Positions 16,545 through 33,294 of a DNA stretch of 64,000 bases are shown here, one piece after another. Source of the DNA: a virus; the IMG/VR virus record IMGVR_UViG_3300045806_000063, positions 117,109 through 181,108 of that record, one strand, 5' to 3'. A program made the position numbers and the translations under genes. Position 1 is the first letter of the stretch, and each line of letters starts with the position of its first letter. Under the pieces are notes generated by a model. The model did no database searches. It was given only the letters and a program-made list of their open reading frames with translations, and had not been told where the DNA came from.

Positions 16545-16578
16545 TGGTACCTGATGCTGATATCAGCATCAGGTACCA
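16545..16578. terminator. 34-bp perfect palindrome
   Basis: tggtacctgatgctgat|atcagcatcaggtacca closes island 1. Confidence 0.7.
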
Positions 16579-16624: not shown

Positions 16625-18799
16625 ATGATTTTATTTTTATCAGACTGGGATAGATACCCTAACGCTATACCGGATACAAAGACCCAGAATACATCATGGT
16701 TAAATATGGCATCTATATTGAAAATGATGGGTATAGCGAACTATGCTTTTTTATTAGCGTTGCACGAACCAAGATTACAAGGAATTGATCCACACTCTTC
16801 AAATTTAACACCTACTCAGGTGTTAATGATACAGTTGGAATTAAAAAACAACCCTTGGTATTTTTTTAGGGAATATGCTAGAATACCTAATGGTAACTAT
16901 CCATTAAAGTTTGAAATCAATAGACCGGTCTTGGCTCTTCTTTGGTCTATGTTAGTTGGTATTTCCTTTGGTTTAGTAATGCCTCGTCAGTTAGGTAAAT
17001 CATTCGCTATGTATTTTTTTCACTTGTGGTTAGTAGATTACCGATATAGGAAAAGTGGTACGTTTATTTTAACCAAAGATGCTAAACTAAAAAAGGAATC
17101 AATAACGCACATGCAAATGTGTAGAGAGTTATACCCTGAATTAATTTCTCCGTTAATTAAACACGGTAATGATAAAGATGTCGATAACTACGATTCTATA
17201 ACCTGTAATAGATGGGGTAATCGAATAACCTTTGATATAGGCCATGCGGTACTGGCTACAGCTAACAATGTGGCTAGGGGCTGTACATTACCATTTATAC
17301 ACTCAGATGAAACTGCATGGACAATTAATGCACAGCTATCAATCCCACAGATGCAGTTTGCTACAGGTAGAGCTCGTGAAAATGCTAGAGAGTTTGGAAT
17401 TGTAAACTGTGATGTCTATACTACGACTGCTGGATTTTTAGATACTGAACATGGTAAATATGCTTACGATCTGATAATGTCAGGCATGTATTGGAATGAA
17501 AACTTATACGACTCATTGAACGCTAAAGACGCCCAATCTATCGTTCTAATGAATGCTCCGGGGAAACGATGTATTATTAATGGAACATTTAACTACCGAC
17601 AAGCTGGGAAAGATGATAACTGGTTAAAAGAGCGGATGGCTGGCGTTACGACTGATGTAGAGACCTTAGAGAATAACTTTTTAAACAAGTGGGGAAAAGG
17701 CGCATTATTTACATTCCTTACCAAACAACAATCTGAAGTAATCTCTAAGGGTGAAATGGCTCCATTACACACTTCAATGGGGGCAAACAAGTATTTAGTT
17801 GGATGGTATCTACGTAAATATGAAATTAACGAAACGCTTAATAGTGGTTATTTCGCTATTGGTTTGGATACTAGCCAAGCTGTTGGTCGAGATTCAAATG
17901 GTTTAATCTTAGTAGATCTAAGGAACATGGCAGTGATAGCCAGATCTCAGATTAACGAAGCTAACCTATTTAATTACGCTATGTGGATAGTAGATCTTTT
18001 GATTCAGTATCCTCGTGTAACCTTAGTAATTGAAAATAAAGCATCAGGTCAGAGTATACTAGATATTATAGTCCATCATCTATTAGCTAATGGAATGAAC
18101 CCTTACAAACGGATCTATAATTCGATTGTAGATAATTCCACAGGTAAAGAAACTGATAAAGAAAACTTTGAACTCATTCAACGCGGGTGGCGTGAAACTG
18201 AAGTATATGAGAAATTCAAAGATAAATTTGGTATCTCTACTAACCAAGAGATTAGACGGTTATTGTACGATGTTGTGATACAGAGTGCAGTTAACTCCAC
18301 TGGTCATTTAGTTAGGGATCCTATTTTAGCTGAAGAATTAAGAGGACTCATCACGAAGAAAGGACGAGTTAATCATGCGGTTAAAGGACATGATGATTTA
18401 GTAATTGGCTGGTTAATGACTCATTACTTTGTGAAGCATACCAGAAACTTAGAGTATTACGGAATTGATACTAACTATGTCTTATCTATGGTTAGTGATG
18501 ACGGGTCAATGTTATCACCTGCTGAACTAAAAGTGAAAAAAATTACTAACAGTATTAAGGAAGAGGTTATTAAGCTTAAGGATAAAATTAAGAGTTCTAC
18601 ATCTTTAGTGGATAACATGAGAGATGAAATGATCTTAAAGGTTAAGATAAATGAATTAAAGAAAACAGGAGACGTTAGTATCTCTCTGGACGCCGTTATG
18701 AAAGAGATCAAAGATGCTAGAGGTAAAACTGGTATTAAAGAAACCATCTTAGATCTACAGCGTAAACGAGGTCAGTGGGTAGGTATGAGACCTGTGTAA
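16625..18799 (+). CDS. terL: Terminase large subunit, phiKZ gp25-like
   Basis: MILFLSDW start, NPWYFFRE, PRQLGKS Walker A, IHSDE Walker B, GLDTSQAVGRD and GHDDLVIGW nuclease motifs; 724 aa. Confidence 0.92.
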   Translation: MILFLSDWDRYPNAIPDTKTQNTSWLNMASILKMMGIANYAFLLALHEPRLQGIDPHSSNLTPTQVLMIQLELKNNPWYFFREYARIPNGNYPLKFEINRPVLALLWSMLVGISFGLVMPRQLGKSFAMYFFHLWLVDYRYRKSGTFILTKDAKLKKESITHMQMCRELYPELISPLIKHGNDKDVDNYDSITCNRWGNRITFDIGHAVLATANNVARGCTLPFIHSDETAWTINAQLSIPQMQFATGRARENAREFGIVNCDVYTTTAGFLDTEHGKYAYDLIMSGMYWNENLYDSLNAKDAQSIVLMNAPGKRCIINGTFNYRQAGKDDNWLKERMAGVTTDVETLENNFLNKWGKGALFTFLTKQQSEVISKGEMAPLHTSMGANKYLVGWYLRKYEINETLNSGYFAIGLDTSQAVGRDSNGLILVDLRNMAVIARSQINEANLFNYAMWIVDLLIQYPRVTLVIENKASGQSILDIIVHHLLANGMNPYKRIYNSIVDNSTGKETDKENFELIQRGWRETEVYEKFKDKFGISTNQEIRRLLYDVVIQSAVNSTGHLVRDPILAEELRGLITKKGRVNHAVKGHDDLVIGWLMTHYFVKHTRNLEYYGIDTNYVLSMVSDDGSMLSPAELKVKKITNSIKEEVIKLKDKIKSSTSLVDNMRDEMILKVKINELKKTGDVSISLDAVMKEIKDARGKTGIKETILDLQRKRGQWVGMRPV

Positions 18800-18803
18800 C
18801 TAT

Positions 18804-18837
18804 TTACTCATCTAAGACTTAAGTCTTAGATGAGTAA
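18804..18837. terminator. 34-bp perfect palindrome
   Basis: ttactcatctaagactt|aagtcttagatgagtaa after terL. Confidence 0.72.
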
Positions 18838-18927: not shown

Positions 18928-19362
18928 ATGAGTAATGTACGAAGAGAATTAACAAAAGCTGATATTATTCTATTAGTCTGTGAATTCTCAGATAGTACTA
19001 AGTGTCCCATGTCGGATATCCTGGTGGGCGCAGGATCTGCTATGGTTTTACTTGGGTTGCGAGAAACTACTAATGACGTAGACATGTCAGTACCGGTTGA
19101 TATATTTGAGGATTACTTAACTGAACCCCCACATATCAGCGAAATCGTGTACGATGAAACGTGGAGACCTCATCACATTGATCTTGTCAACGGGATAAGC
19201 CTTCGTAAACATATGGGGTTCAAGTTACAGCTAAAGGCTGATCAAGGCTTCTTTATCCAACATCCTAAAGATATACTGGACCTCAAACTCGAACTCAATC
19301 GGGAAAAAGACCAAGCAGATATTAGAGCTTTACGCGAAGTTGCGAGCATATGGGGATATTAA
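18928..19362 (+). CDS. Small nucleotidyltransferase-fold protein
   Basis: GAGSAMVLLGLRETTNDVD (G-S...DxD) and C-terminal REKDQADI typical of minimal NTase-like families. Confidence 0.65.
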   Translation: MSNVRRELTKADIILLVCEFSDSTKCPMSDILVGAGSAMVLLGLRETTNDVDMSVPVDIFEDYLTEPPHISEIVYDETWRPHHIDLVNGISLRKHMGFKLQLKADQGFFIQHPKDILDLKLELNREKDQADIRALREVASIWGY

Positions 19363-19364
19363 AA

Positions 19365-19691
19365 ATGAGCAGTAAAGGTTACACATTTAATGTAAAACTT
19401 ACTGCTCATGGCTTTGTAGGCACTTGTCTAGAATTTCCAACATTACGAATAGTTGAGAGGAGTAGAGCAGATGCTTTAGCTGCTATTCAGCGTCTTACTG
19501 AGACAACTAAAGCGGGTAGAAACATTAGGAATGGACGAGTACCCTTAGCTATTAGTGATAGAACATATAGTGGGGAAATATCATTAAGGATACCTCCAGA
19601 ATTACATAAAAAACTAGTCTTTTTATCGAAGGAAAGAAGGACTACGTTAAACAGATTAATATCTGGACTTTTAGAGGAAGCCTTTGAATGA
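19365..19691 (+). CDS. hicB: HicB-family antitoxin (partial RNase H fold + ribbon-helix-helix)
   Basis: FVGTCLEFP...YSGEISLRIPPELHKKL...TLNRLI; ATG 19365; no hicA adjacent. Confidence 0.8.
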   Translation: MSSKGYTFNVKLTAHGFVGTCLEFPTLRIVERSRADALAAIQRLTETTKAGRNIRNGRVPLAISDRTYSGEISLRIPPELHKKLVFLSKERRTTLNRLISGLLEEAFE

Positions 19692-19849
19692 ACGAGGAAT
19701 CCGAGGAACTTATTCATGGTATCAATAAGACATTTAAACACGAGCTGGGTGGGGCATATGGCAACTGGGTATTTGAGCGCTACACTGCTGTTAAAATTGA
19801 CGTAGAAACCTTAGAGAATAATTTTTTAAACCATTGGGGAAAAGAATGA
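19688..19849 (+). CDS. Small hypothetical protein (53 aa, not in ORF track)
   Basis: MNEESEELIHG...NHWGKE; ATGA overlaps with both neighbours. Confidence 0.6.
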   Translation: MNEESEELIHGINKTFKHELGGAYGNWVFERYTAVKIDVETLENNFLNHWGKE

Positions 19850-20286
19850 CAAGTGTAATTAAAGGTAGTTTTGCAGAATATCTGGCTAACAACAAAAAAC
19901 ACACACCAAGTCTGGAACTGTACGTGTTAGCTGGAATACAGGCATCTGAAAATTCTTCAGTTATTCTGTATCTAGAGAGGAATGTATTCAAACTAGAGAC
20001 TATTCACAATGGAGATATCTCACTTGACTACATCTCTCCGCATTTAGTAGCCGAGGTCATTTACTGGATCAACGAAATACTACCATTGAATGACAATTTA
20101 TCAGTGGCATTATCACGTGGACTTAACATTCCAGTTAAAGTTAACATGCAGTTGAGTGTACCTGGTAAATGGGGACGATCTGATAGGCTGTCATCAATGG
20201 TAGATGATGGCATTAAAGACGAATATCCTCAACATGACTACTTTAGACGGATACCTCAGACCAAGAGTAGTGGGAGGTCGAGGTAA
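19846..20286 (+). CDS. Hypothetical protein
   Basis: ATG 19846 coupled to upstream stop. Confidence 0.6.
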   Translation: MTSVIKGSFAEYLANNKKHTPSLELYVLAGIQASENSSVILYLERNVFKLETIHNGDISLDYISPHLVAEVIYWINEILPLNDNLSVALSRGLNIPVKVNMQLSVPGKWGRSDRLSSMVDDGIKDEYPQHDYFRRIPQTKSSGRSR

Positions 20287-20420
20287 ATCGTACCACTGTC
20301 AGCCTTGATAAAGGCGATACATTGTTGGTAGGTCAATATACCGGCCCCCGCCTTGAAGAAGGCACCACACAGCTACCTGACGGAGCTGTAGTCAACTGGA
20401 CGATAGTTTCCCTCCGGTAG
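20271..20420 (+). pseudogene. 3' remnant of an AcrIII-1 / DUF1874 ring nuclease gene
   Basis: Start-less frame reads WEVEVNRTTVSLDKGDTLLVGQYTGPRLEEGTTQLPDGAVVNWTIVSLR*, matching the recalled bacterial AcrIII-1 C-terminus (NR..VSL..GD..LVGQY.GPRLPEG.T.LPEGA...W); in-frame TAG at 20268; SAVGH catalytic half absent. Confidence 0.72.
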
Positions 20421-20425
20421 GGTAA

Positions 20426-20459
20426 ATCTACCAGAGCGCCCTAGGGCGCTCTGGTAGAT
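20426..20459. terminator. 34-bp perfect palindrome, bidirectional terminator
   Basis: Between convergent genes, followed by a T-tract. Confidence 0.75.
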
Positions 20460-20478
20460 GCCTTCTATTTATTTTTTT

Positions 20479-21705
20479 TTATTTTGCTAACAAGCCTCTT
20501 AAACAGATATAGAATATAGCAGCTATCCTAGTCGAGGTAACTGCATTTTCATGTATCCGTGGATTAGATTCTTCAACGATTATATCCATCTTTTCTTTTA
20601 TGTCTAAAAACTCAGGTGATTTAAATCTACTTGACCCTAATACTCCTTTCAGTTTCATTGCTACTTCTGGAACATTAGACAGATGAATATTTTCCTTTTT
20701 AATCAGGAGTAAACAAAACATTAATATTTCATCAATCAGTTCCTCAATATCAAACTTTATATGTCCTTTATTTTTAACTGTATAATTTTCTGAAATGAAT
20801 TCTAATGTTTTACTTAAGTGTAATTTGTGAGCTGTCTTGATTGTTATGATAACTGCATCCATGATATCATCTTTAATGAAGTTATTTTTATCAGGGACAA
20901 TATGCTCCATTAAGTTTTTAATGTGAGCTTGTGCATTAGTCGTGTCTTTTAAAATAGCCTCACCTTCAACAATGGTAAACTTTGATGTGGTAATTAATTT
21001 AGACTGACTATCCTTGATAGCATAATATTTGTTTGTGAGTCCTTGTACTAGAGATCTTAATCTAGTTTGGATATCATTTAATGCTAATACGATACCTCTA
21101 TCAGGAGTTAACTCCCTAATGATTGTAGCATGTAATGCATCATGACCAAGAATACTTTCTGCTCTGGCAGTTAGCATAGCTAACCAACTACCATATTGTT
21201 TTAACTGAGACTTGTTATCTAAAGACTCATAGACCATTTGGGAGATTCCTTCATCAGCTGGATAAGGAAATCTTCTTGTGTGTAAGCTACTCAGAAGCTT
21301 ATATTGCAAAGCCATAATAGCAGCTTCAGACATTAATACTTTTTCTTTTTCTGGTAGGTCTGATGTTAATGCTTTATGTACTAAATAAAGGAATGATATA
21401 TTAACAGCGTCTGATGATACTTTGAACCCACGAGTTATATCAGGGAGATCGTAGATGTCAGATTGGAGTTTATCAAAATCAGTAAACTGCATTACTTCAT
21501 TTTTCCATATGAACAGATCTTCATTAATCATGATAAAAGGATATACCCCAATTAGATTTCCACCTAAGAAATCTATATGGTTCCTCATCCTATCATGTTT
21601 TCTTGCTATTCCTTTAGCGTATGTTACTACGTCTAAAACAAACTCTCGATTAACCGGACGCGTTACTTGTTCATTAAATATCTTTAAAATTGAGTTACTT
21701 TGCAT
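20479..21705 (-). CDS. Conserved phiKZ-like hypothetical protein
   Basis: 408 aa helical protein; FLGGNLIGVY motif recalled from phiKZ-like core genes. Confidence 0.6.
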   Translation of the reverse strand: MQSNSILKIFNEQVTRPVNREFVLDVVTYAKGIARKHDRMRNHIDFLGGNLIGVYPFIMINEDLFIWKNEVMQFTDFDKLQSDIYDLPDITRGFKVSSDAVNISFLYLVHKALTSDLPEKEKVLMSEAAIMALQYKLLSSLHTRRFPYPADEGISQMVYESLDNKSQLKQYGSWLAMLTARAESILGHDALHATIIRELTPDRGIVLALNDIQTRLRSLVQGLTNKYYAIKDSQSKLITTSKFTIVEGEAILKDTTNAQAHIKNLMEHIVPDKNNFIKDDIMDAVIITIKTAHKLHLSKTLEFISENYTVKNKGHIKFDIEELIDEILMFCLLLIKKENIHLSNVPEVAMKLKGVLGSSRFKSPEFLDIKEKMDIIVEESNPRIHENAVTSTRIAAIFYICLRGLLAK

Positions 21706-23431: not shown

Positions 23432-23467
23432 AAATACTACGTTGATGATATCATCAACGTAGTATTT
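23432..23467. terminator. 36-bp perfect palindrome, bidirectional terminator
   Basis: Between convergent genes. Confidence 0.75.
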
Positions 23468-32705: not shown

Positions 32706-33110
32706 ATGACCGAAGCTCAGGATGAGATATTCAACCTGACGCAACACGCGGCAACGGCTGACCAAGCCGAAGCTGGTGTTGTTGAACCAGTATACAAAGC
32801 AGGAATTCAGTCCTGCTTAACGTTCGTAGGCATACCAACTGCCTATGATATTAAAACTAGGGCTAGCAGCTTAGCAGCTAGCGCACGACAATCTGGCTGT
32901 AAAAAAGCCATGATTGGCGGCGCGCCTTATCTGATGAGCGCGCTGGAAGCTGCGCTCATCAAGGTAGGTGTTACCCCTGTCTACGCTTACTCAGATAGAG
33001 TAAGCGTAGAAACAAGAAACACTGACGGAACAGTCAGCAAGTCAACGGTGTTCAAGCACCTTGGTTTTGTTGAGGTCAGCTTACAACATAGTGGCTGGGA
33101 TGACTGCTAG
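32706..33110 (+). CDS. Csx20-like protein, putative cyclic-oligoadenylate ring nuclease / anti-type-III CRISPR
   Basis: NLTQHAATADQ ~ Csx20 (F)SH.LT.EQ; GVTPVYAYSDRVSVETRNTDGTVSKSTVFKHLGF ~ recalled Csx20 G.IPVY.TTKR.SVE..QEDG.V.K.S.FKHVRF. Confidence 0.6.
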   Translation: MTEAQDEIFNLTQHAATADQAEAGVVEPVYKAGIQSCLTFVGIPTAYDIKTRASSLAASARQSGCKKAMIGGAPYLMSALEAALIKVGVTPVYAYSDRVSVETRNTDGTVSKSTVFKHLGFVEVSLQHSGWDDC

Positions 33111-33143: not shown

Positions 33144-33270
33144 GATTAAATACTACTGTAGTATGTTAGACTGTTGAGTAATTACTCCTTCCTCGATATC
33201 GAGGAAGGAGTAATGATGTATTCTTTATTTTTTTTTCTTTTAAATCGAAAACATATATTATCTGAGTGAT
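33144..33270 (+). repeat. 127-bp terminator-promoter module identical to 63874-64000
   Basis: Contains palindrome 33181-33214, T-tract and aaacatatattatctgagtgat. Confidence 0.95.
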
Positions 33271-33294
33271 AGTCCGTAGTTAATTAATTTAGGA

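Follow-up and report, generated by a model that had tools for sequence, protein, structure and literature searches.

In the 64,000-nucleotide window analysed here (bases 117109–181108 of the 181-kb record IMGVR_UViG_3300045806_000063), the stretch 20271–20420 is most probably the non-functional 3' remnant, now a pseudogene, of an AcrIII-1/DUF1874 ring-nuclease gene that was acquired horizontally. Positions below are those of the window, and the features of the locus are collected in Table 1.

The source is an uncultured phiKZ-like jumbo phage; its large terminase gene terL (16625–18799) shows 33–37% identity to the terminases of phiKZ-like jumbo phages that infect Vibrio, Xanthomonas, Erwinia, Pseudomonas, and Ralstonia. 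A small accessory plus-strand operon separates terL from a conserved minus-strand gene, and the fragment is situated at the end of this operon. No close relative of the phage was found: a comparison with phage GenBank records gave no match at the DNA level, the terL relatives retrieved in this search were only 25–30% identical, no exact DNA match to the locus was present in JGI metagenome contigs, and neither ORF A nor a neighbouring 408-aa gene had relatives in IMG/VR. As to the record itself, an exact repeat of ~140 nt occurs at 33144–33283 (genome 150252–150391), just after the Csx20-like gene, and again at genome positions 1–106 and 180982–181108; the 93-nt "direct terminal repeat" of the record is a part of it. 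The contig ends may thus be copies of a dispersed repeat instead of true genome termini, which agrees with the CheckV completeness estimate of 66%.

Table 1. Features of the accessory operon, its flanks, and the Csx20-like gene
Feature	Position	Strand	Remarks
NTase-like gene	18928–19362	+	phrog_12854, E 2.4e-19
HicB-like gene	19350–19691	+	Pfam HicB, E 8e-9
53-aa ORF	19688–19849	+	mostly terL-derived copy
Diverged terL copy	19700–19844	+	copy of 17557–17699; most of the 53-aa ORF
ORF A, 146 aa	19846–20286	+	orphan; ATGA-coupled to the preceding ORF
TAG stop in the fragment's frame	20268–20270	+	left breakpoint, profile 57|58, one codon ahead of the homology
DUF1874/AcrIII-1 3' fragment	20271–20420	+	49 sense codons and native TAG stop; no start codon
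Hairpin and T-run, operon terminator	20426–20478	+	34-nt palindrome
phrog_2921 gene	20479–21705	−	PHROG match; conserved gene bounding the operon
Csx20-like candidate ring nuclease	32706–33110	+	NCBIfam NF040559, weak match

The first-pass annotation had described a start-less frame of 49 codons that overlaps the end of ORF A in its −1 frame, directly follows a TAG at 20268, is richer in GC than its flanks, and ends just ahead of the terminator of the island, and we find the same on every count. Following the TAG, 49 sense codons (W-EVEVNRTTVSLDKGDTLLVGQYTGPRLEEGTTQLPDGAVVNWTIVSLR) lead to a second TAG at 20418–20420; the overlap with ORF A spans 16 nt, the last five codons and the TAA stop of ORF A being read from the fragment in another frame. 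Neither ATG nor GTG occurs in the fragment's frame, and the sole canonical in-frame start, TTG at 20322, leaves 32 residues; the fragment does not constitute a full ORF with its own start codon. It has a GC content of 52.7%, compared with 38.1% for the window on average, and ranks among the 0.6% of 150-nt windows richest in GC; its GC3 is 0.51, compared with 0.25–0.36 in the adjacent genes. The terminator hairpin with its T-run begins 5 nt past the fragment's stop.

The general profile libraries gave weak matches. In Pfam, the sole match of the peptide was PF08960 (STIV_B116-like, DUF1874; E = 0.055, profile positions 58–87 of 101), so that the family proposed earlier was the only one returned, but with a score of 14 bits, below the cut-off of 26. 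In PHROGs, the sole match was phrog_5063 (E = 0.0011, positions 60–90 of 111). The relationship was much better resolved by a subfamily HMM (length 106) built from 114 intact DUF1874 relatives, with the window's own sequence left out; the relatives had been gathered with back-translated peptide patterns from viral and metagenomic loci. This model scored the fragment at 65–70 bits (65.4 in one run, over positions 57–105) over approximately profile positions 58–105 of 106, and in a six-frame scan of the whole 181-kb record (6,511 pieces) the fragment had E = 8e-20, while every other match had E of at least 16. In addition, the fragment is 63–69.6% identical to the C-terminal ends of intact DUF1874 proteins of 100–130 aa. 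The AcrIII-1 C-terminal signature recognized by the first-pass annotation is thus confirmed by both the model and the pairwise identities. As the alignment reaches the extreme C-terminus of the family (e.g., residues 56–102 of a 103-aa protein), the stop of the fragment is the native one. The part present descends from the DUF1874 family, and these alignments make it a genuine homologue of the last 48 residues of the bacterial and phage members; the domain as a whole (~100 residues) is not matched, coverage being confined to positions 58–105.

All recovered relatives are larger than this. They are full-length DUF1874 genes of 104–136 aa, covered by the HMM from about 1 to 105, and all of them carry both the NAFSLNML and the S-x-x-GH motifs; in one relative the frame is extended upstream to 242 aa with the DUF1874 domain still complete, and longer DUF1874 proteins, including fused forms of 150–206 aa, each contain the whole domain. 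A scan of genome contigs yielded one distant match, a search of the peptide among longer proteins gave no match, and the filamin matches that alone were returned by phmmer against PDB with the peptide as the query were dismissed as spurious. Neither the Pfam model nor the PHROG model detected a second DUF1874 copy in the genome.

Residues were mapped by aligning the protein of the closest viral relative (L005) to SIRV1 gp29 (PDB:2X4I, 6SCF). In gp29, Arg66, Gln81, and Arg85 contact or lock cA4, as Asn8, Ser11, Asn13, Ser49, and Thr50 contact it, and the absolutely conserved His47 is the general acid, the H47A mutation cutting activity more than 2500-fold (bioRxiv 10.1101/778746). According to this mapping, the fragment retains the equivalents of Arg66 (in NR), Gln81 (in GQY), and Arg85 (in PRLEEG), that is, the predicted C-terminal cA4 contacts, the last of them on the mobile loop 82–94. 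The equivalents of Asn8, Ser11, Asn13, Ser49, Thr50, and His47 all belong to the absent half. The catalytic S-x-x-GH motif, noted as missing at the outset, is indeed absent from the fragment, profile positions 1–57 being unmatched both upstream and genome-wide; likewise, nothing above chance resembles the NAFS(L/I)NML motif (Asn8, Ser11, Asn13) upstream or elsewhere in the genome. As far as can be read from its residues, the fragment cannot be a ring nuclease.

The missing half was sought in several ways. A profile-to-DNA alignment tolerant of frameshifts and stops starts at nucleotide 20274, profile position 59, with no extension upstream. For profile positions 1–58, the upstream 420 nt reach a score of 9.8, compared with 11.0 ± 1.7 in 300 random 420-nt windows, 76% of which equal or beat them. 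The first 57 profile positions were not found in the three upstream frames or in the rest of the 181-kb record. Thus, by alignment, the N-terminal half is absent, which is more than a frameshift. One candidate for an N-terminal motif, frame C at 20204–20308 (MMALKTNILNMTTLDG), which would have implied an internal deletion of ~101 nt, was rejected: it has no Pfam match, its ungapped profile score of 2–4 bits is usual for the window, and it is ignored by the frameshift-tolerant alignment.

The element that follows the fragment appears to belong to the phage. The hairpin at 20426–20459 is a perfect 34-nt palindrome with a 15-bp stem (−34.6 kcal/mol with flanks), and the genome holds 61 perfect hairpins with arms of 12–21 nt, mostly zero-spacer palindromes between genes, several of them centred on CCTAGG, as this one is. 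Taken as a set, the 61 hairpins resemble a style of terminator or regulatory element used across the genome, and since this one shares the style of the other 60, it probably belongs to the phage itself. The hairpin centres are mostly CTAG, TTAA, or ATAT, examples in the window being 16545–16578, 18804–18837, 20426–20459, and 23432–23467. Intact DUF1874 genes of unrelated viral and metagenomic contigs, too, often have a strong hairpin within ~15 nt downstream (seen at five loci), as expected for stand-alone moron-like cassettes. Co-import of the hairpin with the fragment was considered and is not supported: besides sharing the style of the phage, the hairpin does not resemble in sequence those that follow the relatives' genes.

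Within the part that remains, no decay is detectable: the 49 sense codons are free of stops and near-consensus, and the match-state score over columns 58–105 is 79.8, against 82.3 ± 5.5 in the 114 intact members (rank 78 of 115). The near-consensus sequence, and a GC content that has not drifted to the phage level, suggest a recent truncation or capture. A single illegitimate recombination would have linked ORF A, out of frame, to a point in mid-gene, be it through deletion of the 5' half, through insertion into the gene, as the first-pass annotation proposed, or through the capture of a 3' piece. Since then, ORF A would extend five codons into the fragment and take its stop codon there, and the fragment would be carried on the operon transcript, upstream of the terminator, and yield no ring nuclease. 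Against the pseudogene reading, the lack of decay fits continued selection as well, i.e., a fragment that is still translated somehow; a 1-nt assembly error in 20271–20286 is possible; and a GH-like motif that lies 480 nt upstream, in frame and collinear, is an odd coincidence. It is conceivable, though unlikely, that the undecayed C-terminal half is still in use. It could be a cA4-binding module lacking the histidine, fused to ORF A by a 1-nt difference that escaped notice or by some unconventional shift, or it could form the downstream portion of an acrIII-1 gene that has been interrupted.

In the former case, ORF A and the fragment would be one gene, joined by a 1-nt indel (an assembly error or a very recent mutation) or by a −1 ribosomal shift in 20271–20286, and the product would combine a 143-residue orphan N-terminus with a 48-residue DUF1874 C-terminal half, possibly binding cA4 and catalytically dead. 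The proposal of the first-pass annotation that one extra G in the GGG at 20272–20274 would fuse the frames is correct as far as the arithmetic goes: the frames, which overlap by 16 nt, are joined, and the PQHD histidine comes to stand 18 residues ahead of the asparagine of NR, as does His47 relative to Asn65 in gp29; the undecayed state of the fragment fits as well. The profile, however, lends it no support. In the A-into-B fused read the match still begins at position 57–58, and hence the upstream residues are unlike the DUF1874 family. ORF A on its own scores −1.6 bits with the subfamily HMM and has no match in Pfam, PHROG, or NCBIfam, so that we rejected it as a diverged DUF1874 protein; its "AEYLANN" and "ISPH" strings, which had suggested this, agree instead with the repeat found in a leucine-rich-repeat (LRR) protein of the RNI type. 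Indeed, among 1.84 billion cluster representatives ORF A found only itself and one RNI-type LRR protein (E = 4.5e-5), whose 55-residue repeat unit it weakly resembles, which suggests about two LRR-like units in ORF A; its Atlas structure model is of low confidence. Nor is it a continuation of the terL-like snippet that precedes it (BLASTP against terL, E = 0.78). By direct reading, the overlap (AGT GGG AGG TCG AGG TAA) contains neither an X XXY YYZ heptamer nor a long homopolymer. Half of a DUF1874 domain does not fold independently, and every relative recovered contains the whole domain. Finally, a shift of frame no more than five codons from the fusion junction would be required, which is expected in ~3% of cases, while an out-of-frame junction is the default result of simple truncation. 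Taken together, we regard a single fused gene as quite unlikely.

In the latter case, the gene would have been interrupted, with a GH-bearing 5' piece (19731–19790) and the 3' piece split by an in-frame insertion of 480 nt carrying the terL snippet and ORF A. The 5' piece is the GH-like motif SWVGHMATGYLSATLL, located on the plus strand in the fragment's frame and within the terL-derived copy. It comes from the second-best genome-wide match of the DUF1874 HMM (frame-B piece 19692–19802, profile positions 36–54), which is collinear with the fragment and ends at the start of the fragment's match; a random location would be this near on this strand ~0.2% of the time. The terL-derived copy scores +13.5 bits for the motif, compared with −10.4 bits for the alternative frame of terL itself. 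But the match does not reach significance (E = 16, 4.5 bits), others about as strong are seen at further places in the window, and the GH-like string itself, at 19752–19757, lies in DNA that is clearly derived from terL in another frame, the local alignment score of the motif's nucleotides to terL being 20, against 7.7 ± 1.3 for shuffles. In register, 10 of 26 residues are identical to terL, beside a block of 16 of 18. The copy, which encodes the last 43 residues of the 53-aa ORF, is ~85% identical to terL over its last 54 nt, with changes mainly at third codon positions, and ~60% identical over its first ~90 nt, with changes spread evenly over codon positions. Profile positions 1–35, with the strongest motif of the family, are found nowhere, frame B between the two pieces is rich in stops, and an Rfam search of the intervening DNA revealed no intron or other RNA family. 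We consider an interrupted gene very unlikely, and the GH-like motif upstream is probably a coincidence, though an unexplained one.

It is less plausible still, and in our view highly improbable, that the fragment by itself encodes a 32-aa peptide with a non-catalytic role, starting at TTG 20322. The frame is open and undecayed, and a weak Shine–Dalgarno-like AAAGG (20310–20314) stands 7 nt ahead of this codon; but both signals are weak and could be due to chance, the peptide would be limited to a single strand of the fold plus its mobile loop and would lack Arg66, and no family of such short forms was seen among longer proteins or at any locus. Chance resemblance to DUF1874, or an assembly chimera, is hardly credible, since, although the Pfam match taken alone is sub-threshold, the subfamily HMM refutes chance, many intact proteins share the identity given above, and the ~200-nt patch is flanked on both sides by phage-type sequence, with a phage-style hairpin directly after it.

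Read as a pseudogene, the fragment indicates that DNA of an AcrIII-1 gene would have reached this phage lineage recently. Nucleus-forming jumbo phages evade DNA-targeting defences and stay exposed to RNA-guided type III CRISPR (bioRxiv 10.1101/2022.06.20.496707), and thus traces of ring-nuclease genes in them are sensible marks of an arms race. The family is well characterised, and no new biology is claimed; the contribution is an annotation, together with the caution that half-genes can appear pristine.

Compared with the known AcrIII-1/DUF1874 proteins (SIRV1 gp29, PDB:2X4I, 6SCF; STIV B116, PDB:2J85; YddF of B. subtilis), the 48 C-terminal residues of the fragment are near-consensus for the bacterial and phage branch, matching vNR..v.L..GD.llvgQy.GPRLEEGtt.LP.Ga...W, and, as in many intact AcrIII-1 cassettes, the native stop has a hairpin close behind it; in contrast to AcrIII-1, the fragment has no positions 1–57, no start codon, no Asn8/Ser11/Asn13 motif, and no histidine of S-x-x-GH. 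The host-encoded Crn2 ring nucleases of type III CRISPR loci belong to the same domain family. Fusions of the DUF1874 domain are known, e.g., Csx1–Crn2 (bioRxiv 10.1101/2020.03.11.987685), but the known Crn2 fusions contain the entire domain, whereas the fragment is half a domain, out of frame with ORF A, and phage-borne with no CRISPR locus nearby. The Csx20-like gene of the same phage shares with AcrIII-1 the presumed target pathway, cA4 signalling in type III CRISPR; its match to NF040559 (E = 2.6e-7) scores 31 bits, below the cut-off of 70. Its fold and family are unrelated to DUF1874, and, unlike the fragment, it is an intact ORF. The replacement of acrIII-1 by this gene, as put forward in the first-pass annotation, is a conjecture, and the presence of the two 12 kb apart hints at turnover of anti-type-III genes in this phage.
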